Below are positions 4,073-62,992 of a stretch of DNA of 64,000 bases, piece by piece. Source of the DNA: Nitrososphaerota archaeon. GTDB lineage: Archaea; Thermoproteota; EX4484-205; JAAOZP01. The notes beneath the pieces are model-generated. The model worked only from the letters and a program-made list of their open reading frames with translations. It was not told the DNA's origin and ran no database searches. The DNA lies in NCBI GenBank assembly GCA_011605725.1, contig JAAOZP010000004.1:64001-128000 (forward strand). The letters run 5' to 3'. Position 1 is the stretch's first letter; every line of letters starts with the position of its first letter. A program made the position numbers and the translations under genes.

Positions 4073-4212
4073 ATCCCAAGCTCCTTACTAAATCCAGGAC
4101 GATGCAAGAGTCACTGAGGACTCTTGGTTTGAAATAGCGCGCGCTAACCTCTAGAGTTCTTTCCAGTGACATGCATGAGGTAAATAAGGCAGGCTCTCTC
4201 TTAGGGCACGCA

Positions 4213-6127: not shown

Positions 6128-6373
6128 ATGGAGGACGAGGAGGAGCTTTTGAAGAGGATTGTGGTGAATCCTAAGGTTATGGCTGGTAAACCAGTGATAA
6201 GGGGGACGAGGATCCCGGTTGAGCACCTGCTGAGGCTGCTGGCTCAGGGTTTAACTTTTCAAGAGATACTTGACGATTACCCTCACCTGACGAAGGAGGA
6301 CATTACCGCAGTCCTACTTTATGCGGCCAAGATTACTGGTAAGGAAGAAGTGTATCCAGTAACATTGGAATGA
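6128..6373 (+). CDS. DUF433 antitoxin
   Basis: RIVVNPKVMAGKPVIRGTRIPVE…EILDDYPHLTKEDI signature. Confidence 0.92.
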   Translation: MEDEEELLKRIVVNPKVMAGKPVIRGTRIPVEHLLRLLAQGLTFQEILDDYPHLTKEDITAVLLYAAKITGKEEVYPVTLE

Positions 6374-6383
6374 GGCTGGAAAC

Positions 6384-6728
6384 GTGAAGCTTCTAGTTGA
6401 CGAGAGCGTTGGCATAAAAGTCTACTTTAAGCTTAAACAAATGGGTTTCGATGTTGTCACGCCAATATATTCTATGAAGGGGGCGGATGATGAAGAAGTT
6501 ATGCGAAGCGCAGTTCTCGAGAACCGTGTAATAATCACGAATGACAAGGATTTTGGATGGCTTGCTCATCTTTATAAGCCGCTAGGCGTAATACTTCTAA
6601 GACTGAAAGACGAGAGAGCAGAAAACAAGATCAAGATCATACAGTACGTCTTGGAAAAATATGGTGAAAGAATTCCTGGGAATATTTTAATTGTCTCCGA
6701 GAAGAAAATCAGGATAAGAAGTATTTGA
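6384..6728 (+). CDS. DUF5615 PIN-domain toxin (VapC45-like)
   Basis: MKLLVDESV, GADDEEV, IITNDKDFG, KIRIR; paired with DUF433. Confidence 0.9.
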   Translation: MKLLVDESVGIKVYFKLKQMGFDVVTPIYSMKGADDEEVMRSAVLENRVIITNDKDFGWLAHLYKPLGVILLRLKDERAENKIKIIQYVLEKYGERIPGNILIVSEKKIRIRSI

Positions 6729-19031: not shown

Positions 19032-20273
19032 ATGAGAAAAATCGTGGCAATACTGCTTATGACAATCACTCTCTTATCGACGAGCCCCATGCATACTGAA
19101 AGCGTTGAGGAATATAAACTGCATAGTAAAATACGTATCTATGATGATTCTATGTTTGATGCTGAGCACGGCGTAGTTAGAGGAAGTGGAACTAAAGACG
19201 ACCCTTATATCATAGAGGGCTGGAAAATAGATGCATCTAAAGGTGTTGGAATCTACATAAGGGACACTGAACCCTACTTCGTCATAAGGAATTGTCTGAT
19301 AGAAAACGGAAGCAGGGGTGAAATCCCCTTCGAGGGCATTGTCCTCGAGTGGGTGAGGAACGGGAGAATCGAGAACTGCATCTTTAGAAACAACAGGTAT
19401 GGAATAAGGGTTTATGAATCGTCAAACATTACGATAGTGAACTGCGCAGTGTACAATAGCAGCGGCTATATAGAAATGATGAAGATGGGGATTTCGGAGG
19501 GGGCGATCGAGGTTGATGTCTCGGAAAACGTGACCATAATTGGGTGCAAATTGCACAGGAACTATGGCGACGGCGTCTTCCTCGCCTTTACGAATCATAG
19601 CGTCGTAAGGGACTGCGAGGCATGTGGGAACCTCGTCGGAGGGGTTTCAATATGGTGGTCAAGCGATAACCTTGTGACGAATTGCACGGTATGCAACAAC
19701 ACGAGGGGCATTTATCTAGTCAAGGCGTCAAACAACACGGTGAGGGGTTGCAAGGCTTATGGCAACGGTCATGGGTTAAGCATCCTAGCATCGTCAGGTA
19801 ACGTGATAACGGGTTGCACGGTTAGTGGAAATTACAGGGGGATTTACATAGACCCGTTTGCGACTAACCTGGTTTACAATAACTTCTTCAACAACACTGG
19901 GAAATTCTTATTTAGGAATGAAACCCTTTCAGCGAAGAATTGGGAGATTCAGGGGGGCTACAACTTTTCCACGTGTAAATGGAACACTTCCAAGGTTAGG
20001 GGAAGGAGCATAGCTGGTGGACAATACATCGGTGGAAACTATTGGGACGATTACAATGGGGCGGATGAGGACAAGGATGGGATAGGAGACACCAATATTC
20101 CGTATGGGCCTGGGGATTATTTACCCCTGGTTAGGGTCGAGGTAGCGGAGGAGAAGCCATCGACATGGTTACAAGCTTGGATGATTGCGCGCTTTATTCC
20201 AATTATCGTAATGGTCATGGTTGTCGCATACCTCTTGATTAAGCGTAGGAGGCAGGCGGTTAAAAGTGGTTGA
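19032..20273 (+). CDS. NosD/right-handed parallel beta-helix surface protein, TM-anchored
   Basis: GSGTKDDPYIIEGW, beta-helix repeats, GGNYWDDYNGADEDKDGIGDT. Confidence 0.9.
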   Translation: MRKIVAILLMTITLLSTSPMHTESVEEYKLHSKIRIYDDSMFDAEHGVVRGSGTKDDPYIIEGWKIDASKGVGIYIRDTEPYFVIRNCLIENGSRGEIPFEGIVLEWVRNGRIENCIFRNNRYGIRVYESSNITIVNCAVYNSSGYIEMMKMGISEGAIEVDVSENVTIIGCKLHRNYGDGVFLAFTNHSVVRDCEACGNLVGGVSIWWSSDNLVTNCTVCNNTRGIYLVKASNNTVRGCKAYGNGHGLSILASSGNVITGCTVSGNYRGIYIDPFATNLVYNNFFNNTGKFLFRNETLSAKNWEIQGGYNFSTCKWNTSKVRGRSIAGGQYIGGNYWDDYNGADEDKDGIGDTNIPYGPGDYLPLVRVEVAEEKPSTWLQAWMIARFIPIIVMVMVVAYLLIKRRRQAVKSG

Positions 20274-21789
20274 TATGAGAAGGCTGCTATTGATCATCAT
20301 GCTTACCCTAAGCCTTACCCTATTCGTTAACGCGGAGCCCCAGGGGAGAAAAGGGCATGCACCCATATGCATAAATGGCGACAGGGACTTCGAGAGATGG
20401 GGAATAGCTGGAAAGGGGAGCGGGGATGAACCATACGTGGTCGAGAACATTGAAATAAGAAGCTTGACGATGAACGGAATAGAGGTCTGGAATACTAAAT
20501 CCCACCTCGTCATAAGGAACGTCTTCATAGAGGGGAATGGAAGCTTTACCGGCATCTACCTTTACAATGTGGAGAATGTGAGGATAGAGAACTGCGAGCT
20601 TAAGGGCAACGCGTTCGGAATCCTGGTTCAAAACTCTTCGAACACAGTTATAATGGGCTGTAAGGTTGGTAACGGATCGATTGGGATCTTCGTCAACTCC
20701 TCCTCTAATATAGCGATAATCGGCTCTGAAGCGCTTAACAGCAGCGTCGGAATATACGTTAAGCTTTCCTTGAACTGCACAGCAGCCAATTGCACTCTAT
20801 CTAAAAACAAAAATGGAATTATGCTCGACTCATCCTCCTCAAACATGGTTTACAATTGCACAGTGGTTGAGAACGATTTGGGCATCATGCTCCTCTCCTC
20901 CACGAACAACACTATCTACAATAACCGCTTTAACAACGAAATCGACTGGCATGTTGCTGGAAACTCGACTGGAAACAGGTGGAACGTCTCAAAAACTAGT
21001 GGAAGGAACATCATCGGAGGACCGTTTATCGGCGGAAACCAGTGGAACAGTTACAAGGGCGTTGACAAGGATAAGGATGGAATCGGAGACACTGATGTTC
21101 CATACGGCCCCGGAGACTATCTTCCATTGGTGAAGTATAAGAATTCACCGCCAAAAGCGGATTTCTTCCATTATCCCTCTAAGGTAAAGTGCATGGGTGA
21201 GGTCATTTTCCTGGATAATTCAACGGATCCGGATGGCGAGGTGGTGAGCTGGATGTGGGATTTCGGAGACGGTGGAAACGCCACCGGCATGAGCGTTAGG
21301 CATGTGTTCAGGAAGAAAGGCAACTACACGGTTAGGCTGAGGGTTATGGATGACGGAGGGCTTGAGGCGAACTGTGAGAAAGTCATTGTCGTGTACAACT
21401 CGCCGCCCAAAGCAGGCTTCACATACTCGCCGATCGAGCCGAGGGTTAATGAAACAATCATTTTCACGAGCAACTCAACCGATGTTGACGGGAGGATTGT
21501 GAGCTGGGAATGGGAATTCGGAGACGGAGCCAAAGATGCTGGTGAAAACGTGACTCATGCGTATAGGAGGGAGGGAAACTACACGATAATCCTTCTGGTT
21601 AGGGACGATGAGGGGGATACGGATTGGTGCTTCGCAACGATAAGCGTTAAGCCGGCTTTAAGAACTGAGGGAAGAGGTGCAGAATACTTTCCGTGGATCC
21701 CAGTTGCCATGGTCACTATAGCGATTATAGCGACGTCTACGTACGTTGTGCTTAGGAAGCGTTTGATGCAAAGACGAGAGCGAGCTTAA
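20266..21789 (+). CDS. NosD beta-helix + two PKD domains, TM-anchored; tandem paralog of the previous gene
   Basis: GNQWNSYKGVDKDKDGIGDT; WMWDFGDG and WEWEFGDG PKD motifs. Confidence 0.92.
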   Translation: MVDMRRLLLIIMLTLSLTLFVNAEPQGRKGHAPICINGDRDFERWGIAGKGSGDEPYVVENIEIRSLTMNGIEVWNTKSHLVIRNVFIEGNGSFTGIYLYNVENVRIENCELKGNAFGILVQNSSNTVIMGCKVGNGSIGIFVNSSSNIAIIGSEALNSSVGIYVKLSLNCTAANCTLSKNKNGIMLDSSSSNMVYNCTVVENDLGIMLLSSTNNTIYNNRFNNEIDWHVAGNSTGNRWNVSKTSGRNIIGGPFIGGNQWNSYKGVDKDKDGIGDTDVPYGPGDYLPLVKYKNSPPKADFFHYPSKVKCMGEVIFLDNSTDPDGEVVSWMWDFGDGGNATGMSVRHVFRKKGNYTVRLRVMDDGGLEANCEKVIVVYNSPPKAGFTYSPIEPRVNETIIFTSNSTDVDGRIVSWEWEFGDGAKDAGENVTHAYRREGNYTIILLVRDDEGDTDWCFATISVKPALRTEGRGAEYFPWIPVAMVTIAIIATSTYVVLRKRLMQRRERA

Positions 21790-21917: not shown

Positions 21918-22111
21918 TGCTAAGTTTATGCATTTGAAACGTTTCTAACTGGAGAGTACACTCCATACTGTTGATGAAATATTTTTATGCTTAGACCTCT
22001 TGCTTAAAACCCGTGGCGAAGTGCGCCTACCGCGGGGAGAAGATAAGGGAGATTGAGGAGCGCGCGCGCTGATTTGCTCGCTCTATTTGCTCGTCAGAGC
22101 TTTTTCGGAAG

Positions 22112-43291: not shown

Positions 43292-44611
43292 ATGGGAATG
43301 GTTAGTGAGAAAGATTTTGAGAAAAACGAGGAGGATAGGAAGAAGGCTGTTGAAACCCTCCTTCAACTGAGCAGGCAGAAGCATGATCCAGATGCTTGGA
43401 AGAAGCTGAAGGAAATACTATACCCTCCTAGAAGGCTGGATGTCGACGTGATTATAGATGACACTACTTTAAGAGAGGGACTCCAGATGGCTGGATTAAC
43501 GACACCGGTGGCTGAGGACTTGGCTGAGATAGGCAGGCTACTCTACGAGATTGGTGTTGAGAGAATAGAGGTTATGACATATACTCCGACTGATAGGGAT
43601 GCGATAAGAATAATGGTTGACAATGGGCTTGAAGGAGTGCTCGCAGGATGGAGTAGGGCTGATAAGCGTGATGTAGATGAAATCCTCAAGCTGGATTTGA
43701 AGCAGATAGGGATAAGCCATCCCGTATCATACTATCATTTCGCTAAATGGCCTGGAGAGCATGTTTATAGTCTAGTGAACAGAGTGGTTGAAACAGTCGA
43801 GTACGCGGTAGACCATGGTTTAAAGGTTTTCGTACACGGTGAGGACAGTACGAGAGCAGACTGGGATTTTGAAAGAAAGTTTGTGAACGCCATTGCAGAA
43901 GCCGGCGCAGAGGTTTATAGAATATGCGATACTTTAGGCGTTGGGTGCTCTCTTCCAGACCATCCTCTTCCAAACGGGATACCTGAAAAGATCAGGTTTT
44001 TGAGAAAAGAGACTAAAGTGAAGAGCCTAGAGATACATGCTCACGACGACCTAGGGAATGCTGTAGAGAACACTATGGCTGCTGTAAGGGCAGCCTCAGG
44101 ACTTTATGAAAAGTTTTACGTCAGCACAACATTCCTAGGAATAGGTGAAAGATCCGGTAATGCTGAAACTGAGAAAATAATACTCAACCTGTATATTCAC
44201 CATGGTCTTCAAAAGTGGAACCTATCGCTTTTAAGAGAGACGGCGAATTTCATAGCTACAGCGCTAAACTACCATCTTCCAACGAATAAAGCGATAGTCG
44301 GAGACTCGGCTTTCGCCCATGAGTCAGGAATCCACTTGCAGGGTATAAGGATAGCACCCGCGATCTACGAGGTTTTCCCACCGGAGTTAGTGGGGCAGAC
44401 GAGGAAGATCATAATTGGAAGGAGAACAGGTAAGCACGGGATAGTTTTGAAGCTCAGGGAACTCGTAAACCAGGATGTTGATGAGGACGACCCGAGGCTT
44501 AAGAAGCTGGTGGAACTTGTAAGAAGCAGCCTGCTTCAGGTTGACAGAAAATACTATTTGACTGAGGAAGAGTTTAAAAAGCTCGCGAGCGAAGCCGGTT
44601 TCAAATTTTAG
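43292..44611 (+). CDS. DRE-TIM metallolyase (homocitrate/isopropylmalate/Re-citrate synthase family), no regulatory domain
   Basis: DTTLREGLQ, HAHDDLG, GIGERSGNA, FAHESGIH. Confidence 0.9.
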   Translation: MGMVSEKDFEKNEEDRKKAVETLLQLSRQKHDPDAWKKLKEILYPPRRLDVDVIIDDTTLREGLQMAGLTTPVAEDLAEIGRLLYEIGVERIEVMTYTPTDRDAIRIMVDNGLEGVLAGWSRADKRDVDEILKLDLKQIGISHPVSYYHFAKWPGEHVYSLVNRVVETVEYAVDHGLKVFVHGEDSTRADWDFERKFVNAIAEAGAEVYRICDTLGVGCSLPDHPLPNGIPEKIRFLRKETKVKSLEIHAHDDLGNAVENTMAAVRAASGLYEKFYVSTTFLGIGERSGNAETEKIILNLYIHHGLQKWNLSLLRETANFIATALNYHLPTNKAIVGDSAFAHESGIHLQGIRIAPAIYEVFPPELVGQTRKIIIGRRTGKHGIVLKLRELVNQDVDEDDPRLKKLVELVRSSLLQVDRKYYLTEEEFKKLASEAGFKF

Positions 44612-46265
44612 AGTATTTCTCCACAATGGGAGTTAAATCCATCTCGAAGCCGGCCGCAGGATTCTCTAAACCGTTCAGCTCCAGCACTTCAGGATGAACC
44701 TCTCCCAGAACTCCTAGTGGATTATTGTTGAAAACAATTTTTGCAACCCTGCTTGGTGTAAACAATGGGTCTTCATCTTTCTCGAACAGGACTGGCTCAA
44801 TACAAAGATTGTTCAGCAGGCTTGACACGACGGACTTAATCTCTGAGAAGGATGCTGAAGAATGCATGGATACTCCTGCGAGAGAGACTCGCGCAACCAC
44901 AGATCCCTCAGAAACTCTTATGACTGGACCGGTTTCAAAAATCCTCTGGGGATACTTCTCATGCTTGTTGAAAGCAAGATTTCTAATCAAACCTGGGAGA
45001 AGAGAGTCCCTAAGCATCGTGAGCTCAAGGCTGGAGGAGTTTGCCAGAGTAGCCCTCTCGCCGACAGGCCTCCTAACCATGCGGTAATTCTGATCCTCGT
45101 TGGTAATCAGGAAGTTGAAGACCTCAGTGTAGCCTAAACCTATCATGATCAGCCTAGCCTTGTCTTGGACAACTGTTTCAGGATGCTTCAAACCTATCGT
45201 GGAAGCCTCGGGATAAGTTGGAGTCAGCCTCCAAAGACCATATCCTATAGCAACCTCCTCTACAAGGTCTACATTATGCATGATGTCTACCCTGTATGGG
45301 GGAACCCCGACTCTGAACACGTCCCCCTCGTTCACCACTGAGAACCTACATTTCAGAAGACTCCTGTAGATCTCAGCATTACTTAGATTCTCGCCCAGGA
45401 GAGAATTAACGTAACTCGCCTCAACACTCATGATCCTAGGGTTGAAATCCGGAAAAGTCTTCTCAGAACCATCGTCGTAGATTATCTTAACCGCCTCAAT
45501 ACTCGCACCCATGTCTTTAAACACGTATAGAAGTATGTTCAGGGCTCTTGAAGCATAATACTCGTCCAGAGCAGTTACATCTATGAAGAGGTTTCTGGTT
45601 TCAGGGGTTAACCGGGTAAGCTCAGAGTTTATTATAGGCGGGAAGGATAAAACCTCCCCGGTTGAATCAACTATCACAGGATACTTGTCGAAACCCTTGA
45701 TAATATGACCGTATTCCAAGCCCTTGTCAACCTCTTTTAAAACCTCGTTTAAAGTCATCCTTCTATCTATTCCAAGCGGCTTGAACGAAACCGCATCGGG
45801 CTCTGCAGCCACATAGTATACCGGGGGCCTAATCTTGTCCAAGTCATGTATCCCGATGGATACCTTACGCCTATTCCTACCAATACCCTGATGTAGGACC
45901 TCTTGAACATTAATCACCTCCTTTAAATCCTCCTCAGTGAGCTCAACATTCCTCACCACCGCTGAGCATAGAACACCCCTGATCCCTCTAAGCCTATTGT
46001 CGAAGTGGAAAACTATATTCGGACTTGAGAAAACAGCTTCAGGATATCCCAATCCAATCTCGAGAAAACCCGCGTACGCTCTGGCAATGCCAGCGTGGCT
46101 CGAGAAATCCGGCCTGTTCGGATTATACTCTATCTTAACGAATCCTTCACCAACATCCTCGATATCTGTCGCAAGCCACGGTAGGTCTTCGACAAGCTGC
46201 TTCAGCCCCACGTCAATCCCGAGAAACCTGCTCAGCCTCTCAGGGTAAACCTCTATCACCGGCAT
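44601..46265 (-). CDS. pheT: Phenylalanine-tRNA ligase beta subunit
   Basis: PNRPD, GIHDLD, SFPPIINS, PPYRVDIMH.VDLVEEVAIGYG. Confidence 0.96.
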   Translation of the reverse strand: MPVIEVYPERLSRFLGIDVGLKQLVEDLPWLATDIEDVGEGFVKIEYNPNRPDFSSHAGIARAYAGFLEIGLGYPEAVFSSPNIVFHFDNRLRGIRGVLCSAVVRNVELTEEDLKEVINVQEVLHQGIGRNRRKVSIGIHDLDKIRPPVYYVAAEPDAVSFKPLGIDRRMTLNEVLKEVDKGLEYGHIIKGFDKYPVIVDSTGEVLSFPPIINSELTRLTPETRNLFIDVTALDEYYASRALNILLYVFKDMGASIEAVKIIYDDGSEKTFPDFNPRIMSVEASYVNSLLGENLSNAEIYRSLLKCRFSVVNEGDVFRVGVPPYRVDIMHNVDLVEEVAIGYGLWRLTPTYPEASTIGLKHPETVVQDKARLIMIGLGYTEVFNFLITNEDQNYRMVRRPVGERATLANSSSLELTMLRDSLLPGLIRNLAFNKHEKYPQRIFETGPVIRVSEGSVVARVSLAGVSMHSSASFSEIKSVVSSLLNNLCIEPVLFEKDEDPLFTPSRVAKIVFNNNPLGVLGEVHPEVLELNGLENPAAGFEMDLTPIVEKYSKI

Positions 46266-46277
46266 AGCTTAACCCTC
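46242..46277. repeat. Left 36-bp direct repeat (pheS stop/pheT start overlap)
   Basis: agggtaaacctctatcaccggcatagcttaaccctc; 34/36 identical to 53340-53375. Confidence 0.92.
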
Positions 46278-46350
46278 TAAGCAATCTAAACAGCGGATTA
46301 TTAATTTTACTGGAATAGTTCAGGTAACTAAAAAATAAGCGCGTCCCACT

Positions 46351-47145
46351 TCAATCCTCGAGTTTTTTGACGCTCTCCAGCTTCTTACGTAAATCGTTAA
46401 GATAGCGCTTGCTTATCCCAGGTACTCCGAGGCGTTGAGCTTCCCTAACAGCATCCGCTCTTTTCTTAATTTCTTCTAGCAACTTGTCCTCGCTCATGCC
46501 GCTGGAATTGAATGCTGAGTAGAAGAAATCCCAATCCTCGTGTGGCTTCAGATAATGCTTTACTTCAAAGCCATATTTTCCGCTGATTCTTTCAGCAATC
46601 TCCCTGACGTATTTTATGTAGAGCGCTATCATCCGCAACAGGCTTAGGGTCCTGCGTAAACGTTTATCCTCCATATCTATGCATTCTTCGAAATCCTTGC
46701 CCTCAGACAGACCCATTATGATCTCTTCGGTTTTCTCTATCCATTTCTGCACGAGCTCATCATACTTCTTCTTGTCTCCAATTTTTTCGGCTTCCTTTAG
46801 TTCCCTATCGAAAAGCGGTTGTATGGCCAAACTTATATGGAAATTTATATCGACCATGCCTTGTGAATATATCTCTATAGCTCCATTCTCATGGGCTTCG
46901 ATATAAGAAGAAAAGCCTAAGAGAGTCCAAGCGACCAGCATGCCTGAGCTGTCTTTCTTAGCCTCAATCCATGCCTCAAGGATTGCTCGTGGCGGCGAAC
47001 CCACCAGTCCTTCCTTTTCATATTTAACAAAACCCCCCTCTTCAAACTTCTTAAAGTCTTCCAATCTAACCTTTCCCTCAGACAGAAGCTCTACTAACCT
47101 TCTAAGGAATCCGATACTAAACTTTCCCTTAGTCACTTCATTCAT
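46351..47145 (-). CDS. Putative cognate immunity protein 2
   Basis: ATGA overlap with the nuclease ORF; FNSSGMSEDKLLEEIKKRADAV matches immunity protein 1. Confidence 0.65.
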   Translation of the reverse strand: MNEVTKGKFSIGFLRRLVELLSEGKVRLEDFKKFEEGGFVKYEKEGLVGSPPRAILEAWIEAKKDSSGMLVAWTLLGFSSYIEAHENGAIEIYSQGMVDINFHISLAIQPLFDRELKEAEKIGDKKKYDELVQKWIEKTEEIIMGLSEGKDFEECIDMEDKRLRRTLSLLRMIALYIKYVREIAERISGKYGFEVKHYLKPHEDWDFFYSAFNSSGMSEDKLLEEIKKRADAVREAQRLGVPGISKRYLNDLRKKLESVKKLED

Positions 47146-48185
47146 CCTCTCCTTGTTATCTCTATGTAAGGATTCTTATAATTACCAACACTTTCAGGCA
47201 TGCTTAAACCTTCCTCTGAAGATGACCATATGTCATAGTCGAGTACGAACAGGACACCATATCTTGCTGTCTCAGACTCCATAAGGAAATCCGTGAGCTT
47301 CTTTCTCCCTTTGTTAACCTGCAGGTCAAAAACTGTAGGATCATGAATCGCAGTGCCCTTAACCTCGACGATGGCAGTAACCTCGCCTTTCTTAAAAGGA
47401 TCCTCATATTTATCGGTTATATCCCATTTCGCTTCTATCTGAAAATCTGGACCCACATTGCCCGCCCAATTATGAAGCCTTCTCGCATCTACAGCATCCC
47501 TGGGAATTCCTGTCTCCTCACAGAATTTATTGAGGAGTAAATCCTTTTTTTTCTCTACCCATAATTCTACGACCTGCCCGATCAACTCAGTATTTTCAGG
47601 ATCGGACTTAAGCATATTAAGACAACCCGCAAGGTCGTTAACTGTATCCGCATACTTCAACACTTCTACGTAAGCTATTTTAGTCGCATCCTCGGGCACT
47701 TTGACCGTCAATCGAGGATTAAAGCAATATGCATACTTATATTCACCATATTTATCGACAAAGCACACTATTAGAACCAACCTCTCTTTGAACTCAACAT
47801 TTTTATCTACCTTCTCAAGCCCCTGAACATAATAGCCGCTTAGAAAGATACGCTCTTTCAAACCTATGTCTTGATGTCCCTCGACGTTGCTAACGTCGTC
47901 AGCTATTTCTAATCTTTGAGGAACAATTATGTCTCTTCCGACAATACATGTAAACACATTTATATCATTTCCCATCCGATACTCAATAATCCATCGTCCC
48001 TTGTATACTTTAATACTACTAATAGGATGCGCTATAGGCTTATGCACGTACACTCTTCCGTCTTCATAAAAGGTGAAGATAATTGGTTCGCCATAAATAT
48101 CCTTAGCTCCTGTTACCACATCAAGAGCAGCCCCCCTCTCAGAGTTTCTAAGGTTCCAAGATTCCACCGGGATTTCGTTTAACAT
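47142..48185 (-). CDS. C-terminal portion of toxin 2 with PD-(D/E)xK nuclease-like domain
   Basis: IGQVVE…GPDFQI…IVEVKGT…YGVLFV; frame stays open upstream (YNKIKAYDESDR) to the (GC)5 tract. Confidence 0.7.
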   Translation of the reverse strand: MLNEIPVESWNLRNSERGAALDVVTGAKDIYGEPIIFTFYEDGRVYVHKPIAHPISSIKVYKGRWIIEYRMGNDINVFTCIVGRDIIVPQRLEIADDVSNVEGHQDIGLKERIFLSGYYVQGLEKVDKNVEFKERLVLIVCFVDKYGEYKYAYCFNPRLTVKVPEDATKIAYVEVLKYADTVNDLAGCLNMLKSDPENTELIGQVVELWVEKKKDLLLNKFCEETGIPRDAVDARRLHNWAGNVGPDFQIEAKWDITDKYEDPFKKGEVTAIVEVKGTAIHDPTVFDLQVNKGRKKLTDFLMESETARYGVLFVLDYDIWSSSEEGLSMPESVGNYKNPYIEITRRG

Positions 48186-48207
48186 CCTATCAGATTCATC
48201 GTATGCC

Positions 48208-51200
48208 TTAATCTTGTTGTAGCGCGCGCGCTAATATTCCTTCAGCACAATCTTTAGGCATCCAGAATTGACTCGACTTCGTATCCTTTCTAAATGAGAA
48301 TTCTACGACTCCTTTCTTACCCCCATACTCCCAATAGATCTTCGCCTTATATATCCCAGGTCCAACATCATTTCCTTTCCCCAAGCTCAACATAGCTCCA
48401 TCTCCCTTTTCCAACGTAACTTCACGTAACCTTTCCCAAGATACTTTATAATATTCTATACTACTTATCTTAGCTACTAGTTTATCTAGCACATCAGGAT
48501 TCTCGAGAACAGTAGTTAAGAAAATACCAGCAACATTTTCATCATACTTACCTTTAATGTCGAAATAGTTATCAATAATTTTCCCTATTTTAATCCCAAC
48601 TCCTTTCCTTGCATCTCCTTTTATCATTATCAGAATTTCATCTAGGGCTTTTATCTTGTCAGGGTCTTTTGTATTCTTGTTAAGCCAATTGTTCAAAGAT
48701 TCTATTGCATCGTCACCATCCTTAATCCACATCGAAACTATACTCCTTACGATTATCCCACCTTTTCCCTGAAACTCTTCTAGAGAATAATGCTTTATGA
48801 TCGTGCTAATTGCATTTAGTATCCTGCCTGAGCTTTCTACACTCGGAACGTTTTCTAAAGTGTGTTTTGAGATTTCCGAAGCTGTTTCAAGGATATCTTC
48901 AATCTTTGAAGGATTGTTTATTCTCTTTATTAGATCTCCAACGACGTCTCCGAACTTTCTGCTGTACTTATTCCCAAGTAAAAGGTCAACAACCTTGTGG
49001 AACGATGGCTTTAGCCTCAGCACCAATACATCAAATATTGCTGGGGTTATCCAGTTCCAAATCCCCCTGCCTACGATTCTGAGCACGTCCTCAACGCTAA
49101 GCGGCTTGCCTCCTGCTTTCTCAGCCCTTATCCTGTTGACCACCGCGTAGAAGGTAGTGACATATGCTGCGCAACTAACTATCGCTCCGACAACCCTTCC
49201 AGTGGCGTATCCGATTCTATAATCCCTATCTTTCGTCGAAGGAGGTTCCTTCAACCCGAAGGCTATTCTTATCTCATCCCATGAGACGTCTAGAGCCAGG
49301 TCTGAGAGCACGTTGGAGAGGAGGTTATCGTTAATATCCTTGGCTTCTAGCCTGAATATTTGGGAAAGCTCGAACAGCTCGTTAGCATGCTGGGCCATGC
49401 CGATTTCATTGAACTCCTTGCTCCTGCCCTCGCAGACATCTGCAATTTCGTTAAACGAGTCCATTGCAGCCAACGCGTTGTGGACATCTGTCCAGATTTC
49501 AGCTATGTTCATCGCTATACCAGTGGCGAGGATTGCTGGCGATGCTGCTACAGCCCACTTAGGCGGGAGAACGAAGCCGACAACAATCATTATTCCGCAA
49601 GTAACTATTATCCCCCATCCCTTTGAGACGAAGCCGTCCCAGAAGCCCCTCCAGAACATAGGCAGCTCGCCACTTCTAAAGCTCGCTTGAAGAGTTGCAA
49701 CAACCCTACCCCCGTGCTTCAAGTTAATGAAGATCGGATATTCTGCATCTTCCTCAAGTTGGACTAGGTGTAATGGGATCGAGCCGAATGCTGGAACGCT
49801 AATAGCATGCTCCTCCGGAATTCTCGCCGGCCCAGCGAAGACCTCTAGCTCATATTCCGCGTTGCATGCAGCATAGTTTCTTATCAATACCCCTTGTACT
49901 AAATCGCCCCCGCCATATGCAAGAGGATGGTAAATGAGTTCTATCTCTTTTCCATGCGAGCCTCTTGTCGCTGCTTTATCCAAGTCCCACCTAGTCTCTC
50001 CGGTATCCTCGTATTTGTAATCGTGGTCTTCCCACCCATTGTACTTTAGCCATTCATAGAATTCACCATTAACCGTTATGACTTCGCTCTGGTTCAGCAC
50101 CTCTTCCTTTAGCAGCTTAACCTCGTAATTGGAAGGTATCTTGCTTGGCTCAAGCCTATCATCCTCCAGGATACCGAGTAGCTTCTTAACCTCATCCTCA
50201 TGGAGTATTCTCTCATAGAGGAAACCTGGCTTGACATCGATCAACGCATATCTAACGTTCAGCGTCTTAGTCATTTTCGAGATATCGCTGACATTCTCAA
50301 TTGTCGATGTGAAACCATCAGGCGAAATAGGGATCAGCTCTACTCCATTGAAATCTTGGAGATACCCCGGCGCCATATCCGTCGTCATGAAGTATAACTT
50401 AACATGCGTAGCCCCTTGGTACCCTGGTACGAAGACCCTCTTGGTCTCATTGTAGCCCTCAACGTTTACAACATAAGTTCTCCATTCCTCCGGGGCAACG
50501 AAGCTCATGGTTGAGATCGTTGTTAACGCTGTGGATATGTATCTCTTTCCTTCTTCATCACAATAGACTGCTGTGATGTTGAGCTTGGCGATGGGAGAAA
50601 GGAGCTTCGTTAATATATTCTTCGACCATAAGCCAACGATGGCTCCGATTTCCAGCTCCTTTCTATCAACGTCTCCAGTTATGAGCAGCTTGACGTCTCT
50701 CGCCTTCCGTCCTCCCTTATTGAGAAGGGTTATTGTGAGGTTTGCGTACTTCGCTATCACTTGGCTTGAAAGCTTAACCTCAAGCCTCGGAGGCTCAGGT
50801 AGAACCTCTATGGTGTAGGTTACGGTCTTCCCCCCGTTCCAGAACACTAAATCCAAGTTGCCCGGCTGAACAACAGCAAAATAGACCGTAATCTTGTAAA
50901 CCCCAGGTTTCTTGGCTTTCAGGTAAAGCGGAGCGATGCGTGTAGGGCTTGGGAGTGGAGCCCATGTCTCAAACGCGTCACTATCGGAGAACCTAACACC
51001 CAGCAAGATTTCGTAGCTTCCTCGGATCTCCTGAGGATTCCTTATTTGGGCTGTTATCGTTATCGTATCACCGATCCCAACTTTGGTTGATGAGATTGTT
51101 GTATCAACTATTATTGGGTCGTAGGCTGGGAGGAGAACCCTGAACTCGCTTATTTGAGATTGCATGGCTTCGCGTGTTTCCTCAAAGTGACTCGGGACTG

Positions 51201-51879
51201 CGATGAGAAAATTTTCAGCAAAGTAGCCTTGGCTCAGGTTTGAGAATAGCCCTATTTTCATCCTAGCGGTCTTGTTAAGTATTTTACCGGTCTCTAGATC
51301 GATGAGGGTGAAGGTGTATGAATCAGGGTCGATGTGCCTGACTAAGTATGTCCTCTTCTTAGGATACCTATGAAGAATGTGGAAGACATTAGTTCCATTG
51401 CTTTCATATTTTATAGAGCTTACATCTTCCTCACTTCCATCCTTACCAATTGCCTTATAGGAGATTTCTACGGAGACGCTTCCATCGCTGCCTCTACGAA
51501 TATAGATTTTCTCATACTCGGGGATTATCGTGTAATCCTTAAGATCATAGTCTATTCGAGTCGGTAGCTTCAGAGTATTGTTAGCACTTTTTATGGTTCG
51601 ACGTATCTCCTCTTCTAAGCTTCCAATGGAAACCAGTTGAGCTATGAAGAACCAGAGCCTCTGCGCAAGCTCAACGGGAAAGCCCTCAGGCACTATGAAG
51701 CATGCCTCGGTTATCGAGCTGCTCGGCACCTTCCCCTTCCTTAATTCCTCCTCTATGAACTTTAATGCTGTTAGAGCATCCGTTTCCTCCGTGGCGTATG
51801 CCCTAAGGGTTAGAGCAGCGCTGAAGTTGGAGGTTAATATCAGGATTGCCAGGATTGCGGCTGATGCTTTCCTAAGCAT
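48208..51879 (-). CDS. Toxin 2 N-terminal/trunk portion (1223 aa): signal peptide, Ig/CARDB-like domains, hydrophobic hairpin; frame-separated from its nuclease domain
   Basis: Signal peptide; trunk aligns by eye with 8140-13239 (FWRGFWDG, GRVVGAI, WITPAIFD, YFDI). Confidence 0.75.
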   Translation of the reverse strand: MLRKASAAILAILILTSNFSAALTLRAYATEETDALTALKFIEEELRKGKVPSSSITEACFIVPEGFPVELAQRLWFFIAQLVSIGSLEEEIRRTIKSANNTLKLPTRIDYDLKDYTIIPEYEKIYIRRGSDGSVSVEISYKAIGKDGSEEDVSSIKYESNGTNVFHILHRYPKKRTYLVRHIDPDSYTFTLIDLETGKILNKTARMKIGLFSNLSQGYFAENFLIAVPSHFEETREAMQSQISEFRVLLPAYDPIIVDTTISSTKVGIGDTITITAQIRNPQEIRGSYEILLGVRFSDSDAFETWAPLPSPTRIAPLYLKAKKPGVYKITVYFAVVQPGNLDLVFWNGGKTVTYTIEVLPEPPRLEVKLSSQVIAKYANLTITLLNKGGRKARDVKLLITGDVDRKELEIGAIVGLWSKNILTKLLSPIAKLNITAVYCDEEGKRYISTALTTISTMSFVAPEEWRTYVVNVEGYNETKRVFVPGYQGATHVKLYFMTTDMAPGYLQDFNGVELIPISPDGFTSTIENVSDISKMTKTLNVRYALIDVKPGFLYERILHEDEVKKLLGILEDDRLEPSKIPSNYEVKLLKEEVLNQSEVITVNGEFYEWLKYNGWEDHDYKYEDTGETRWDLDKAATRGSHGKEIELIYHPLAYGGGDLVQGVLIRNYAACNAEYELEVFAGPARIPEEHAISVPAFGSIPLHLVQLEEDAEYPIFINLKHGGRVVATLQASFRSGELPMFWRGFWDGFVSKGWGIIVTCGIMIVVGFVLPPKWAVAASPAILATGIAMNIAEIWTDVHNALAAMDSFNEIADVCEGRSKEFNEIGMAQHANELFELSQIFRLEAKDINDNLLSNVLSDLALDVSWDEIRIAFGLKEPPSTKDRDYRIGYATGRVVGAIVSCAAYVTTFYAVVNRIRAEKAGGKPLSVEDVLRIVGRGIWNWITPAIFDVLVLRLKPSFHKVVDLLLGNKYSRKFGDVVGDLIKRINNPSKIEDILETASEISKHTLENVPSVESSGRILNAISTIIKHYSLEEFQGKGGIIVRSIVSMWIKDGDDAIESLNNWLNKNTKDPDKIKALDEILIMIKGDARKGVGIKIGKIIDNYFDIKGKYDENVAGIFLTTVLENPDVLDKLVAKISSIEYYKVSWERLREVTLEKGDGAMLSLGKGNDVGPGIYKAKIYWEYGGKKGVVEFSFRKDTKSSQFWMPKDCAEGILARALQQD

Positions 51880-52912
51880 TCCCTTCGCCTCCCGGCTTAC
51901 CTAGGGTTCTCCATCTCAGGAGTATGATGAGCAATGAGACCGTTGAGACAGCCAACGAAGATGCTAAGAGCCTCATGATGCTTAATTCTTCAGCAAGCCT
52001 TTCATTTTCCCTAGTCTTCTCTGAAACCATCTCCTGGTATTCTTTGAGAGAGACCCTTAGAAGAGCCGTGGTATTCTTCTCTATCTCCAGCTTATCCCTT
52101 GATGCTCTTAGCTCAACCTCGGAACTATTCAACATAATCCGAAGCCGCTCATTCTCCTCCTTCGACTCAAGGTGTTTTGAGAATGGGTTTCGTCGAGCTC
52201 AATAATCAGCGTCGCCGTTAGATTCGGTGCTTTGATGCTTAGCAAGAGCTTAGCCGGCTCCTTAAGCCCAGAGAACCTTGACCACTCAATTCTCGTTTCG
52301 TACAGTCCCTTCTCGCATACAACCTTACAATCCTCGATTAGAGATTCCACTCGGAGCGTTGCCCCCACCTCAACGCTATTGCATGGAGCGATTATTTTGA
52401 AGGAGATTTTTAGAGCATCTTCATCTATGAAGATAGAATTCGGAACTATCTCGATGAAATCAATAACCTCTTCGCCTTCAACCTTTATCATCGCCTGTCC
52501 CTCTTTGAAACTTCTTACCCCCTGTCTATAGCAGTCTATCAAGAAGCAGTTACCCGAAATAGTGTCGTTATCCACGGCTATCCAGAGCTGAGTCCCATTA
52601 AAGTCGAGCATGGGGTAAACGCAGACGTAGAAATCGCCCCTTATGGTTACGTTGGGCGCGCGCGGGGCGGGTAGCGTTTAATGGCCAGTTTACTGGGAGA
52701 AATGGGCGAATAAAGATCACTGCAAACGTTAAGAGGAATGGCGATGCTTCGGCGTAAATTTCGTTTACCAGCGGGTAAACACTATTTACCTTCGAGCAAA
52801 CAACATTTACCTTCAGTGGGCATTTGTCTACGTGCCCAGCGACTCCACGCATCTTTGAAACGGCTTTAATGGCTAAAAGGAAGATGCACAATGCTTTCCA
52901 TGGCCTAGCCAC
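51872..52912 (-). pseudogene. Secreted coiled-coil, C-terminally TM-anchored protein broken into three ORFs
   Basis: Breaks at GCGCGCGC 52656-52663 and at the A-run 52188-52190; an added A gives …IIELDENPFSKHLESKEENERLRIMLN…; overlaps the start of the toxin gene. Confidence 0.6.
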
Positions 52913-53339
52913 TATGCTAGTGTGCTCTAATAATTATAATTACTGATTCTGAAATCCTTTATCACATTGTTTATCAGATTTTTAGTACTCATAACCACCC
53001 GGGTTCTAAGAATTATAAAAACGTTAATTACTACATGGACCAGTGCGCACGGCAGCCCTGTTTTTAGCACATAGAGTCACCACTTTCCAGCTCGGGGAGT
53101 AACTTTAATCAGCCATATCGCCAGAGAGTTTTTTAGCGTATGCTCTGCAAAATGAGTAGGCTAGTGTTCCAGACAGATATTGATACATTCTGCAAGAGAG
53201 TTCCAAGAAGCATTTTTGGCGAGATACAGATTTCATCCCGGAGAAACTAAAAGAAATCTAATGATAAAAGCCGACATTAAGGTTTGGTTTTAAACTAAAG
53301 CAAAATGTCACATAACAGGAGACATAACGCTTGCTTCTA

Positions 53340-53375
53340 AGGGTAAACCTTTATCACGGGCATAGCTTAACCCTC
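53340..53375. repeat. Right 36-bp direct repeat
   Basis: agggtaaacctttatcacgggcatagcttaaccctc; contains the pheS stop and an aborted pheT start (MPVIKVYP*). Confidence 0.92.
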
Positions 53376-54838
53376 CTCAACCAGCCTAAGTCGTTCTGAT
53401 AGAGGATACGAATATCGTTAACTCCCAGCTTAAGCATCAGCAAGCGCTCCAAGCCCCCTCCCCAAGCGAGAACAGGATAATCTATACCAAGAGGTTTAGT
53501 AACCTCAGGCCTGAAAATCCCCATGCCGCATAATTCAAGCCACCTACCGGCTTGCGGAACGTAGACGACGGAGTTCATACTCGGCTCAGTGTATGGGAAG
53601 TACGAGGGCCAGAATTGAACCTTTTCCAACCCGAGTTTCTTATAGAATTCTGTTAAAACTCCCTTTAGGTCTCTGAGGGTCACACTCTTATCCATTATTA
53701 TGCCCTCTATCTGGTGGAACTCTGCAAGGCTTTTGAAAGAGAGCCTCTCGTTTCTGAAAACCCTGTCGACGCTGAAAACCTTAACTGGAGGATCCCTATG
53801 CTCATACAGGTACCTTACTGATACGCATGTAGTATGTGTTCTTAACACGAGCCTCTTCGCAGCCTCCTCAGACCATTTCCCGCCCCATCCGGTTGAACCC
53901 GTCTCCCAGCCGTTTTCATGCGTTTTCCTCACTCTTTCAACAAGCTGCCTGTCAGCCAGCTCCGTGGAGGATGGGTGTGAAAGATAGAAGGTGTCCTGCA
54001 TCTCCCTAGCTGGATGGTCCTGCGGGGTGAAGAGGGCGTCGAAGTTCCAGAAGCATGATTCGACCAGTGGGCCCTTCGCCTCGGTGAAACCCATCTCTGT
54101 AAAGATTTCCTTAACCTCTTTGATGAATTCTGTTAACGGGTGTAGTTTCCCAGGGTATATAGGCTCAACATCAGTAGTGACATCGTACGGTTTAAGCTCA
54201 ACGTTTCTCCATTCCCCTGTTCTCAGGAGCTCAGGAGTCAACTGTGTTACTGCAACCTTCAGCTCAACAAGTCTACCTGCCTCAGTCAGAGAGACCAGTC
54301 TCTCAACCTTCTCCTCAACTTTAACTATGCCCCTTCCTGACAGGAGTCTAACAGCATCATTATCCAGCAGGCTGATGTCTAGAGGGCCTGACGCCAATGT
54401 CCTGACAACGGTTTCGTCAACCCCTTCAGGAGGCTCTTTCTCAACAACTATGTGAGGAACACCGTTTACAGCCCTGATTGAACCCCATCCCTTTCTACGC
54501 AGCCAGCCGAGCGCTATCGTGAAGAAAGACTCATCAGGATAAGTCTTCCGAGCCTCCTCCAGAGGCATAATGCCCCCGTTTCTCAGCACGAGTTTCAAAA
54601 GCCTTCTCTCAGGAAGCCCGTTTCTAGAATGGTATTCTCCCTCAACGGTTAACCTAGCATACTTGGTTTCCCTGGTTGAGACCCTTACTAAGCCTTTCTG
54701 AGAAAGGGAGGAGACTACGCTTGCTGCTGACGACTCATTCAAACCCGTGATCATGCAGAGTTCGCTGAAGCCCATGGCTCTACCGGTTCTTCTAAGAGCC
54801 TCTACAATGTCTTTCTCAAGCTTAGATTCCAGGCTCAC
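53354..54838 (-). CDS. pheS: Phenylalanine-tRNA ligase alpha subunit
   Basis: FWNFDALFTPQDHPAREMQDTF, LRTHTT, FHQIEG, YFPYTEPS, GLERL; GTG 54838 after AGGAGG. Confidence 0.96.
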   Translation of the reverse strand: MSLESKLEKDIVEALRRTGRAMGFSELCMITGLNESSAASVVSSLSQKGLVRVSTRETKYARLTVEGEYHSRNGLPERRLLKLVLRNGGIMPLEEARKTYPDESFFTIALGWLRRKGWGSIRAVNGVPHIVVEKEPPEGVDETVVRTLASGPLDISLLDNDAVRLLSGRGIVKVEEKVERLVSLTEAGRLVELKVAVTQLTPELLRTGEWRNVELKPYDVTTDVEPIYPGKLHPLTEFIKEVKEIFTEMGFTEAKGPLVESCFWNFDALFTPQDHPAREMQDTFYLSHPSSTELADRQLVERVRKTHENGWETGSTGWGGKWSEEAAKRLVLRTHTTCVSVRYLYEHRDPPVKVFSVDRVFRNERLSFKSLAEFHQIEGIIMDKSVTLRDLKGVLTEFYKKLGLEKVQFWPSYFPYTEPSMNSVVYVPQAGRWLELCGMGIFRPEVTKPLGIDYPVLAWGGGLERLLMLKLGVNDIRILYQNDLGWLRRVKLCP

Positions 54839-54913
54839 CCTCCTACACCTATCGTTTAAACGTGCACAAGCAGTTTTTAAATTTGAAACCTTAATAATTC
54901 CTATTGGAGAAAT

Positions 54914-56710
54914 ATGCTGATGAAGCCCGGGGTCAAGCCTCCCGAGATAGTTGAGAAACTGATTTCCGCAGCACTTGGAAGGAGTAAAGCAAGCCTCGTC
55001 GTCGAGAGAGGAGCTTTGGTGAATGTTTTCACCGGAGAGATTGTTGAAAACACTGATATTGCTGTGGTCGACGACAGAATAGTGCTGGTAGGGAATGCTA
55101 AGCATACGATTGGGCCTGAGACAAAGATTATCGATGCTTACGGAAAATACTTGGCACCAGGGTTCTTAGACGGACATGTGCATGTGGAGAGCTCTATGCT
55201 GACAGTAACCCAGTTTGCAAAAGCTGTTCTACCCCACGGGACGACGACTGTTTTCATAGATCCCCACGAGGTTGCGAACGTGCTTGGGATAAACGGGGTT
55301 AGAATGATGCATGACGAGGGATTAGGCTTGCCTTTGAAAGTCTATGTTTCAATCCCCAGCTGTGTGCCGGCGACCGGTTCAGAGTTTGAAACCGCTGGGG
55401 CCGAAATAGGTTTAAAGGAGATTGAGGAAGCATTCTCATGGAGAAACACTATTGCACTGGGTGAAGTCATGAATTACCCTGGAGTATTATCCTTAAACCC
55501 CAAGATTATAGGTGAGGTTAAAGCGGCTTTGAAAAACGGCAGAATCGTGGAAGGACATTTCTTCGGAAACCTTAATGAAGAGCTTAACGCTTACATTGCA
55601 GCAGGAATATCCTCTGACCACGAGTCTGTAACTATGGAAGCTGGGCTTGCTAAACTACGACTAGGGATGCATGTTATGGTTAGGGAAGCATCAGCCTGGA
55701 GAGACCTGAAGGAGGTAATAAGAATGGTTACGGAGAAAAAGGTTGACGCGAGAAGAGTGTGTCTGGTTAGTGACGACAGGGAGCCTAACGACCTTTTGAA
55801 AGACGGACATATCGACCACATCGTTAGAAGAGCGGTGGAAGAAGGCGTTGACCCTGTGACCAGCATTCAAATGGCCACGTTGAACACTGCGGAACACTTT
55901 AAGGTCGACAGTGAGATAGGCGCCCTAGCACCAGGGATGATAGCTGACATACTGATCCTGAAAGACTTGAACAGGGTTCTCGTCGAAACGGTGATAGCTA
56001 ATGGCAGGATTGTCGCGAAGAACGGTAGGCTGGTGGCGGAAATACCTGAATACCAGTATCCTGAAGAAGCTAAGAGGACAATCAGGCTAGGCAGGAAGCT
56101 TGATGAAAACGATTTAAAGATAAGGGTTGGCCAAGACAAGGATGCTTTCAAAGTCAGGGTTATACAGGTTGTTGAAGCTAAGGCTATTACGAGGAGCATG
56201 CTCGCAAGTATTAGGCAGAGAAACGGTTTCCTAGAGGCGGATCCGGCTCAGGATATTGCTAAGGTAGCGGTTTTTGAAAGACACAGGGCCTCAGGCAACA
56301 GGGGAATAGGTTTCGTCAAAGGCTTCGGCTTTAAGAAGGGTGCCGTAGCATCCACAGTAGCACACGACAGTCACAACATGCTTATAGTAGGGGTGAACGA
56401 CGGCGACATGGCTTTAGCGGGAAACACGCTGGCAGAGGCTGGGGGAGGAATGGTAGCCGTGGAAAACAACCGGGTACTGGCTCTTCTAGAGCTCCCCATA
56501 GCTGGCTTAATGTCGGATAAGCCTGTTCAAGAGGTTGCAGCAAGAGTTGAAAAGCTTTCAGAAGCCTGGAGACAGCTTGGCTGCACGATGACCCGTCCAT
56601 TCATGACGATGTCCCTACTGGCTCTTCCAGTCCTTCCTGAGCTCAGGATAACTGATAAAGGGCTTATCGACACGGTTAATTTTAGAAGAGTAGACCTTAT
56701 AGTGGAATAA
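54914..56710 (+). CDS. ade: Adenine deaminase
   Basis: DGHVHVESS, GEVMNYPGV, SDHE, SDDR, STVAHDSHN, LPIAGLMS. Confidence 0.96.
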   Translation: MLMKPGVKPPEIVEKLISAALGRSKASLVVERGALVNVFTGEIVENTDIAVVDDRIVLVGNAKHTIGPETKIIDAYGKYLAPGFLDGHVHVESSMLTVTQFAKAVLPHGTTTVFIDPHEVANVLGINGVRMMHDEGLGLPLKVYVSIPSCVPATGSEFETAGAEIGLKEIEEAFSWRNTIALGEVMNYPGVLSLNPKIIGEVKAALKNGRIVEGHFFGNLNEELNAYIAAGISSDHESVTMEAGLAKLRLGMHVMVREASAWRDLKEVIRMVTEKKVDARRVCLVSDDREPNDLLKDGHIDHIVRRAVEEGVDPVTSIQMATLNTAEHFKVDSEIGALAPGMIADILILKDLNRVLVETVIANGRIVAKNGRLVAEIPEYQYPEEAKRTIRLGRKLDENDLKIRVGQDKDAFKVRVIQVVEAKAITRSMLASIRQRNGFLEADPAQDIAKVAVFERHRASGNRGIGFVKGFGFKKGAVASTVAHDSHNMLIVGVNDGDMALAGNTLAEAGGGMVAVENNRVLALLELPIAGLMSDKPVQEVAARVEKLSEAWRQLGCTMTRPFMTMSLLALPVLPELRITDKGLIDTVNFRRVDLIVE

Positions 56711-62838: not shown

Positions 62839-62992
62839 TGTGAAAGGCGTTTCCCACGAGGATAATTAACCATTTTCAACTCCAGCATGTTGAGACTTTT
62901 CAGGGCAGGCAGGGTTTTTAGAGCGCGCGCGCTTTAAAAGGCTTATGTTTAAATTCAGCTTTAAAGCCAACAACGTAGCCGGCGTAAACCGA

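Follow-up and report, generated by a model that had tools for sequence, protein, structure and literature searches.

A broken locus of a probable polymorphic toxin-immunity family at the pheS/pheT junction of an archaeal genome

A 64,000-nt stretch of archaeal DNA (GCA_011605725.1, contig JAAOZP010000004.1; hereafter the window, whose coordinates are used throughout) holds two gene groups, each built around one large protein. The initial annotation had taken both proteins for toxins that share a hydrophobic trunk and differ in N-terminus and nuclease tip, which raises the question of what kind of system the second group (locus 2; 46351-52912, minus strand) represents and whether it is intact. 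In the order of transcription, locus 2 consists of the fragments of an upstream gene, the open reading frame (ORF) of the large protein "toxin 2" (P0001, 1223 aa; 48208-51879), an ORF of 347 aa (47142-48185) that begins 22 nt beyond it, and an ORF of 264 aa (46351-47145) that overlaps the end of the 347-aa ORF by 4 nt, all on the minus strand. We conclude that locus 2 is probably a decayed representative of an archaeal family of polymorphic toxin-immunity genes restricted to its lineage, in which toxicity, immunity, delivery and target would be as proposed below. The comparisons that lead to this reading involve the large protein of the other gene group, toxin 1 (P0002), and an intact relative of P0001 (P0004, on locus L001).

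The trunks of toxin 1 and toxin 2 had been matched by eye, with a pairwise alignment suggested as the check. Direct comparison of P0001 with P0002 by BLASTP was not significant (best E=1.4; weak but colinear high-scoring segment pairs), whereas a profile and two bridging relatives gave significant matches. A hidden Markov model (HMM) of 11 trunk sequences, from which P0002 was excluded, was run against the 5,823 ORFs of the genome; it matched P0002 at residues 722-1171 (E=1e-7, 29.6 bits), and the runner-up in that search had an E-value of 0.029. The large protein of a further locus (L045) matched both P0001 (E=3e-83; residues 23-1142) and P0002 (E=6e-21; residues 710-1318), and a second bridging protein, P0030, matched the trunk of P0001 with E=1.5e-27 in a search of 5.8e9 sequences and P0002 with E=4e-8 in a pairwise comparison. 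These three independent lines show that the trunk similarity is real homology. All six motif pairs originally noticed fell in the same columns of a nine-sequence alignment (A2), in which the hydrophobic stretch was also present. Not every method recovered the relationship. Comparison of the P0001-family alignment with P0002 by hhalign reported the C-terminal ExK region alone and not the trunk, a word-indexed homologue search with the P0002 trunk found one protein that was 99% identical, and an HMM dominated by close relatives of P0001 gave P0002 an E-value of about 1e-3 at Z=1, so that more diverse paralogues were needed. This last value and the BLASTP result are what a chance similarity of hydrophobic and coiled-coil sequence would predict; the genome-wide profile match and both bridges refute it, as does the fact that the tip and partner of toxin 1 are common to standard members of the family. 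The N-terminal regions of P0001 and P0002 are unrelated, as the initial annotation had supposed.

The tip that had been assigned to toxin 2 (the sequence from "GPD" to "EVK") lies outside P0001, in the separate 347-aa ORF, the gene being broken. An AF2 model of this ORF (predicted local distance difference test score, pLDDT, 93) contained a part rich in beta strands that precedes the nuclease (residues 1-177; 47655-48185) and a C-terminal alpha/beta domain (residues 178-347; 47145-47654). Structure comparison of residues 183-347 with VIA returned proteins of the restriction-endonuclease fold at Z 5-6.9, with 12 of the 16 rows at Z>=5 belonging to that fold. These included LHK-Exo, a REase-like protein, BpuSI, HsdR, PaqCI, a phage exonuclease, Hjc, SwaI and McrC (e.g., 3syy, Z 6.9, root-mean-square deviation (rmsd) 3.3, 103 residues aligned; 3s1s, Z 6.4; 1gef, Z 5.6). 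Foldseek gave SwaI with a probability of 0.90 and no match at E<=0.001. The family alignment (A3) conserves G203, E207, D247 and E274-V-K276 of the window ORF, with the aspartate nearly invariant, and the tip of P0002 aligns with these as E1580, D1613 and E1627-E-K1629. The predicted core fold together with the E, D, (D/E)xK signature identifies the tip as a PD-(D/E)xK nuclease-like domain, a call that rests on the consistency of the VIA list and on the motif, the Z values themselves being middling. The two toxins had been credited with different nuclease tips. Both, however, carry the E...D...ExK arrangement and could be linked, weakly, by profile (E=3e-4 between the two tips; E=7.6e-4 between the tip types CT1 and CT3 to which they belong), so they are diverged subtypes of one fold rather than different kinds. 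Tips of a further type, CT2, also show D...ExK.

Forty further loci were examined besides those of the window. Across about 40 loci the three-gene order recurs, with a gene of ~380-450 aa before nearly every full-length large gene and, abutting the large gene on the same strand, a gene of ~200-260 aa or ~340-390 aa. For the 38 loci over which pairings were counted, the last 300 residues of the large protein clustered into CT1 (16 loci, including locus 2), CT2 (12), CT3 (five, including toxin 1), CT4 (four) and CT5 (one), and the downstream proteins into DN1 (21), DN2 (12) and others. The two classifications go together: a CT1 tip was followed by a DN1 partner at 16 of 16 loci, a CT2 tip by a DN2 partner at 11 of 12 and a CT3 tip by a long form of DN1 at five of five (shuffle p ~2e-4). 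As kinship alone could yield such an association, the tip types were placed on the trunk tree, where they were interleaved within clades of 95-100% support and required 13 changes against a minimum of four. Across five independent contrasts, a change of tip went along with a change of partner in 4.7 on average, and the opposite was never seen (p=0.0625, the floor for five pairs). Where closely related trunks carry different tips, their similarity ends within ~50 residues at the end of the helical-repeat domain (P0001 ~1080-1135), near the motifs EELExxGKxL and NGLKLFxTYF. The expectation that the ends are exchangeable and that the trunk is what defines the family has therefore held: tip types interleave on the trunk tree, the partner changes with the tip, the N-terminal domain of P0002 is foreign, and a trunk-profile search returned family members only (see below).

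Free cassettes were also found. In the genome of the window, orphan tips stand beside a partner of matching type at C11:37956-42827, C19:6427-7302, C20:36832-38207, C1:31543-34139 and C4:212300-214315, and partner genes outnumber tips, with 15 of DN1 and 10 of DN2. A trunk-less protein of 2448 aa on C20 (18044-25387) ends in a CT1 tip, with a DN1 gene next downstream. No hydrophobic segment, transmembrane (TM) segment or signal peptide was found in the partners, and the 264-aa protein of locus 2 (DN1) would be a cytoplasmic, immunity-like protein. A model of the complex between the nuclease domain and this protein had a median score of 0.68 against 0.00 for the best control; the mark applied was reached by 58 of 80 solved complexes and by two of 110 mismatched pairs, counts that apply only approximately, since the present model was made with our own alignments. 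The runs agreed in at least 63% of contacts, partner pLDDT was at least 73, and the predicted interface includes tip residues 195-201, 240-245 (which adjoin D247) and 284-300. The model thus supports binding of the downstream partner to the nuclease domain. An exported scaffold, replaceable tips, cognate partners and orphan cassettes are together the signature of a polymorphic toxin-immunity system, and it is because all four of these defining features of the bacterial systems are present that we favor this reading.

Locus 2 itself is a decayed copy of such an operon. Most homologues of P0001 have ~1600 aa, compared to its 1223 aa. The closest, P0004, has 1617 aa and is 94% identical; in a single frame it corresponds to P0001, 47 further residues and the 347-aa ORF, the latter being 99% identical to P0004 residues 1271-1617. 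Alignment of the DNA of the window with L001 revealed two losses, one of ~118 nt at the boundary of trunk and tip and one of ~500 nt that includes the start of the upstream gene. At the first, a 12-nt patch of the form A(GC)5T (48221-48232) replaces ~118 nt of the intact gene (L001 8426-8543) and shifts the frame, and P0001 stops seven codons further on. At the second stands a (CG)4 filler (52656-52663). L001 has no filler at either site. What remains of the upstream gene, which would have encoded a membrane-anchored coiled-coil protein of ~390 aa, lies at 51872-52611 on the minus strand and appears as ORFs at 52598-52912, 52129-52611 and 51872-52135; its 5' third is deleted and an additional 1-nt deletion near 52184/52185 shifts its frame. 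The intact, 392-aa form is present at L001 3605-4783. The toxin 2 gene is therefore broken, with the nuclease ORF split from the trunk by a frame-shifting deletion joint, and the upstream gene is a pseudogene, so that locus 2 holds no working toxin gene. An assembly artefact was considered as the source of the split gene and rejected, since filler of the same (GC)n kind occurs at both joints and is missing from the intact relative and since the flanks align cleanly.

Over 46000-53400 of the window, DNA identity to L001 was 88% for the upstream gene and trunk and 98.7% for the tip module and partner gene. The jump falls exactly at the (GC)n joint of the trunk/tip boundary, which suggests that the segment of tip and partner was recently exchanged between lineages and imprecisely joined; the break in locus 2 is a clean example of a (GC)n-sealed DNA joint exactly at a cassette boundary. 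At seven related loci a (GC)n palindrome follows the large gene by 590-840 nt, just past the partner gene. Short (GC)n palindromes also occur elsewhere in the window, at 435-442, 4137-4144, 22060-22069 and 62923-62932. The whole of locus 2 occupies a 7.1-kb block between pheT (44601-46265) and pheS (53354-55105), flanked by a direct repeat of 43 nt whose copies are 91% identical. One copy (46235-46277) lies over the start of pheT and the other (53333-53375) over the 3' end of pheS. Because the repeat duplicates the end of pheS and the start of pheT, the block is an insertion into the pheS/pheT junction with target duplication; no integrase is in sight. L001 shows the same pheS/pheT synteny, and the neighboring genes are housekeeping ones (pheS, pheT and thermosome).

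The family is rare and almost confined to a single genus of uncultured archaea. An exhaustive profile search of 1.84e9 representative proteins yielded 51 clusters, all of them family members or fragments, and many relatives matched the trunk profile only to position ~405-418. The matched proteins are named "hypothetical protein" and come from metagenome-assembled genomes (MAGs) of Thermoproteota or Candidatus Brockarchaeota. The trunk was found in 13 of the 16 GTDB species of the window's genus, in multiple copies (up to 17 matches in a genome, several of them interrupted by stop codons), in one of 10 other genomes of the order and in 16 of 401 genomes that were sampled from the phylum, one of these 16 being a distant outlier. 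Pfam gave no match at E<=0.05-0.1 for P0001, P0002, P0004 or their neighbors, with tips, upstream genes and downstream genes also empty, and neither the family alignment nor the partner alignment had a match among PDB sequences. A trunk profile that hit an S-layer, tape-measure or other known non-toxin family would have spoken against a toxin family, and none was hit in the Pfam, PDB sequence and fold searches. Besides P0001 and P0002, the genome of the window has three more paralogues, giving a copy number of at least five. Two of the paralogues are split over contigs (ends of contigs, C10:60674-62593 and C15:21560-23410; starts of contigs, C19:1-3486 and C8:1-3360), and the ~45 residues common to both ends indicate that the assembly broke in a repeat inside the genes. 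At a further locus (L010) a 1707-aa paralogue (C19:9185-14305) has its first ~100 codons in another frame (C19:8892-9269), by a frameshift or a sequencing error. With at least five genes of ~5 kb here and ~25 partner genes, the family fills an appreciable part of small genomes and, for this reason, likely shapes competition or kin recognition in these communities.

P0001 begins with a hydrophobic segment ending in AYA|T (residues 1-29; 51793-51879), which from sequence and hydropathy is a putative Sec-type signal peptide, and similar N-termini were present in nearly all full-length relatives. There follows an N-terminal region (residues 30-740; 49660-51792) that would be extracellular, has no known domain and is conserved in P0001-type relatives. 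The trunk carries, ~700 residues after the N-terminus, an invariant W-x-G-x-W-x-G motif (P0001 743-749). Its membrane part (residues 741-918; 49126-49659) comprises this motif (FWxGFWDG), a strongly hydrophobic TM1 (757-775), a weaker TM2 (~773-795), an acidic helical hairpin and a moderately hydrophobic TM3 (897-915) that is followed by a K/R-rich stretch, as judged from hydropathy, with the family mean used for TM3. TM3 of P0002 was below threshold. Hydropathy and charge leave the topology ambiguous between two and three TM helices. The soluble part (residues ~919-1216; 48233-49125) holds the helical-repeat domain and a small beta domain. In an AF2 model of P0001 725-1223 (mean pLDDT 79) the membrane part was of low confidence, and pLDDT exceeded 90 at model residues 230-420, which cover the helical repeats (~955-1145) and the small beta domain. 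The matches of this model in Foldseek and VIA were confined to designed helical repeats, TALE repeats, three-helix bundles and helices of F-BAR type (E>0.02, Z<=6.3), generic matches that are uninformative for a helical model. Since these were all that the fold searches gave, the modeled trunk resembles no known translocation, S-layer or tape-measure module, and the role of membrane-translocation module with which the initial annotation had credited it is pure conjecture. The receptor binding that the same annotation had proposed for the N-terminal region is likewise a putative role. The upstream proteins of ~380-450 aa have a coiled coil, with a signal or TM segment at the N-terminus and a further TM segment at the C-terminus.

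We propose that an intact operon would encode a membrane-anchored coiled-coil protein of ~400 aa, a large protein of ~1600 aa and a cytoplasmic protein of ~200-370 aa. The large protein would comprise a Sec signal peptide, an outer region of ~700 aa, a trunk of two to three hydrophobic helices and the helical-repeat domain, and would end in a replaceable module of ~450-600 aa with the PD-(D/E)xK nuclease-like domain. This nuclease would damage nucleic acid in a neighboring cell that lacks the matching partner, while the downstream protein, bound near the active site, would shield the producing cell and its kin. Cassettes of tip and partner would be swapped by recombination where the trunk ends, with spares retained as orphans, and locus 2 would have been disarmed when the deletion joint cut the tip from the trunk and the upstream gene died. 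Several observations weigh against this proposal. The third hydrophobic helix with its K/R-rich flank may put the C-terminal half of the protein in the cytoplasm of the producer, and a delivered toxin fits poorly for that reason. Pfam detected no domain of known secretion or delivery systems in the large proteins or their operon partners, and none nearby. The fold matches of the tip were of middling Z, and several relatives have ExE for ExK (P0011, P0014, P0016, P0035 and others; E-M-E-S; CT1-type tips), which may be inactive or use a variant active site. The recognizable tip types CT1, CT2 and CT3 all look like one fold (D...ExK), and classical polymorphic toxins carry many. Loci of one genus are kin, so that the 38-locus association overstates independence, and the contrast test can go no lower than its floor. 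Finally, as many of the genomes are MAGs, some breaks at other loci may be assembly artefacts, and two paralogues of the present genome are split over contig ends.

The topology is also the starting point of a different explanation, in which the large protein is a transmembrane sensor-effector: the outer domain would sense contact with a cell or virus, the trunk would cross the membrane with three helices and the nuclease, held by the downstream inhibitor in the cytoplasm of the producer, would on activation bring about suicide, abortive infection or kin incompatibility after membrane contact or fusion. TM3 (P0001 897-915) with the K/R-rich stretch behind it and the acidic segment after TM2 suit an N-out/C-in orientation, the partner is a cytoplasmic protein with predicted binding to the tip, machinery to export the C-terminal half was not seen, and the giant proteins of ~2400 aa described below likewise have a mid-protein TM pair. 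Should TM3 truly span the membrane, the nuclease would lie in the cytoplasm of the producer, and a sensor-effector or transfer through the membrane would be favored over secretion. TM2 and TM3 are, however, just moderately hydrophobic and P0002 falls below threshold at TM3, and orphan cassette arrays, an excess of partners and repeated swaps are the mark of weapon and immunity repertoires, not known for sensor-effector defense genes; we consider this explanation unlikely. Equally doubtful, and more far-reaching, is the idea that the trunk is a three-pass anchor with nuclease and inhibitor inside and a polymorphic outer domain outside, which would make the family an archaeal allorecognition or incompatibility device. 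An outside sensor would then be wired to an inside suicide or attack nuclease in place of a secreted toxin or, in a variant, a membrane-embedded toxin would be handed on through vesicles or membrane fusion, comparable to the outer-membrane exchange of myxobacteria, and the cassettes would be shuffled by this genome's unusual (GC)n-patch end-joining.

Two further explanations give the large protein or the nuclease another purpose. Tip and partner could form a selfish addiction cassette of toxin-antitoxin type that stabilizes mobile islands, with the large protein serving as adhesion or cell-surface architecture. This would agree with free-standing pairs of tip and partner that have no large carrier, with the position of locus 2 as an island between pheS and pheT bordered by 43-nt direct repeats and with the (GC)n joints at cassette ends in several loci. 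It is nevertheless improbable, as ~40 loci fuse the tip to a conserved scaffold of signal peptide and trunk at one breakpoint site, an arrangement that would not be maintained were the carrier irrelevant, and as one tip type occurs on two distinct exported scaffolds. The least probable of the explanations of the family as a whole is that of a surface-anchored nuclease used to feed on or take up environmental DNA, with the downstream protein as its intracellular inhibitor before export. Signal peptide, membrane anchor, nuclease-like tip and a cytoplasmic predicted binding partner would all be expected of such an enzyme, whereas a housekeeping nutrient nuclease would not be expected to have at least 10 diverged copies in a 2-Mb genome, to swap cassettes, to have partners specific to each type or to leave orphan cassettes.

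Taken as a polymorphic toxin-immunity family, these loci invite comparison with known systems. Bacterial polymorphic toxin systems (CdiA-CT/CdiI, Rhs/WapA, LXG and others) have been studied in depth and were reportedly treated by Zhang and co-workers in 2012. Descriptions of them are also given in PMC8416519 and PMC9424270. Like these, the present family has a large exported protein in which the N-terminal and central part is conserved and the nuclease tip at the C-terminus is replaceable, a small cognate gene directly downstream that co-varies with the tip, orphan cassettes of tip and immunity gene, many copies per genome and a fixed recombination junction. In contrast to these, Pfam detected no FHA/VENN, YD/Rhs, LXG, PAAR or other known trafficking domain, there are no T5/T6/T7 secretion genes, the scaffold of signal peptide, TM helices and helical repeats is new, all tips seen look like one fold and the archaeal host has a single membrane. 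Compared to CdiA/CdiB in particular, there is no TpsB partner and, by Pfam, no TPS domain, FHA repeats or VENN motif, the junction being marked by EELExxGKxL and NGLKLFxTYF; compared to Rhs/YD-repeat toxins, there is no RHS/YD match in Pfam and the AF2 trunk model is helical. The PD-(D/E)xK DNase toxin CdiA-CT of E. coli TA271 with its CdiI (PDB 4g6u) resembles the tip in VIA (Z 4.9, rmsd 4.5 A, 108 residues aligned), a weak match and no better than those to restriction enzymes, Hjc or exonucleases, and there too the immunity protein is encoded next to the toxic tip, although sequence similarity is absent and the carrier and secretion route are others.

Colicins are soluble proteins released by lysis, and the DNase of nuclease colicins is an HNH domain. 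With nuclease colicins and pyocins, whose downstream immunity proteins bind tightly, the family has in common the layout of an outer, putatively binding part, a middle part and a nuclease tip, with the partner modeled beside the active-site region; it differs in having no sequence or fold relation to them, in being apparently membrane-anchored and in its PD-(D/E)xK tip. Among archaea, polymorphic toxin systems have been predicted (Makarova et al. 2019, mBio) and, as described in PMC8416519, are considered contact-dependent, with none experimentally characterized. In the same description, a long first gene is followed by arrays of C-terminal homologues with adjacent immunity genes, and DNase and RNase tips are commonest. 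Judged by that description only, the large gene, adjacent partner and arrays of tips found here are alike, while the homologues of the present family are "hypothetical protein" entries from Thermoproteota and Brockarchaeota MAGs and belong to no Pfam family. VARTIG modules of Thermococcales are likewise archaeal, lineage-restricted and hypervariable, with a large secreted head protein whose C-terminal part recombination shuffles between strains; what varies there is an Ig domain, and no domain of a toxin was detected in them (PMC8416519), whereas here the variable part is nuclease-like, has a cognate partner and contains no Ig or other domain detected by Pfam. The trunk is a new scaffold. The architecture is compact and well delimited: this scaffold domain is joined to a nuclease tip whose interface with its cognate partner is confidently predicted. 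It also comes with many natural swaps, which makes toxicity, immunity specificity and, above all, the delivery route across the archaeal envelope directly testable.

Toxin 1 is intact. It is a paralogue that has diverged very far, and it combines another outer domain with a tip of a related subtype. Its gene (1699 aa; 8140-13239, minus strand) encodes a foreign N-terminal domain, a divergent trunk (residues ~696-1243) and a CT3-type PD-(D/E)xK tip, and is followed on the same strand by a partner of 367 aa (7033-8136), a long form of the DN1 family with 42% identity to the partner at another CT3 locus. Upstream, also on the minus strand, lies the gene of a secreted repeat protein of 1888 aa (P0003; 13236-18902). 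P0003 was considered as the counterpart of the ~400-aa upstream partner of other loci and rejected, as the two have no similarity. The two loci had been described as having the same gene order, and this stands on the downstream side, where both genes are of one broad family; the two upstream genes are not related to each other, and that of locus 2 is a pseudogene. Residues 162-610 of P0002 match two giant proteins of the same genome (C20:18044-25387 and C5:73692-80762) with E ~1e-75. Both giants lie outside the window, have ~2400 aa, share the outer domain of toxin 1 and carry six to eight N-terminal TM helices in addition to the mid-protein TM pair. They are alike throughout save for one replaced cassette (residues 2015-2305 of the C20 protein, 1981-2217 of the C5 protein), of which the C5 version has an orphan copy at C5:82480-83133, and they seem to serve the same cassettes as a second scaffold.

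Just downstream of the toxin 1 operon, on the plus strand, are neighbors with DUF433 (6128-6373) and DUF5615 (PIN/Mut7-C-like; 6384-6728), a common pair of toxin-antitoxin type. Divergent from the operon (19032-21789, plus strand) are two NosD/beta-helix proteins, one of them with PKD domains, and the surroundings of toxin 1 are in general rich in secreted surface proteins.

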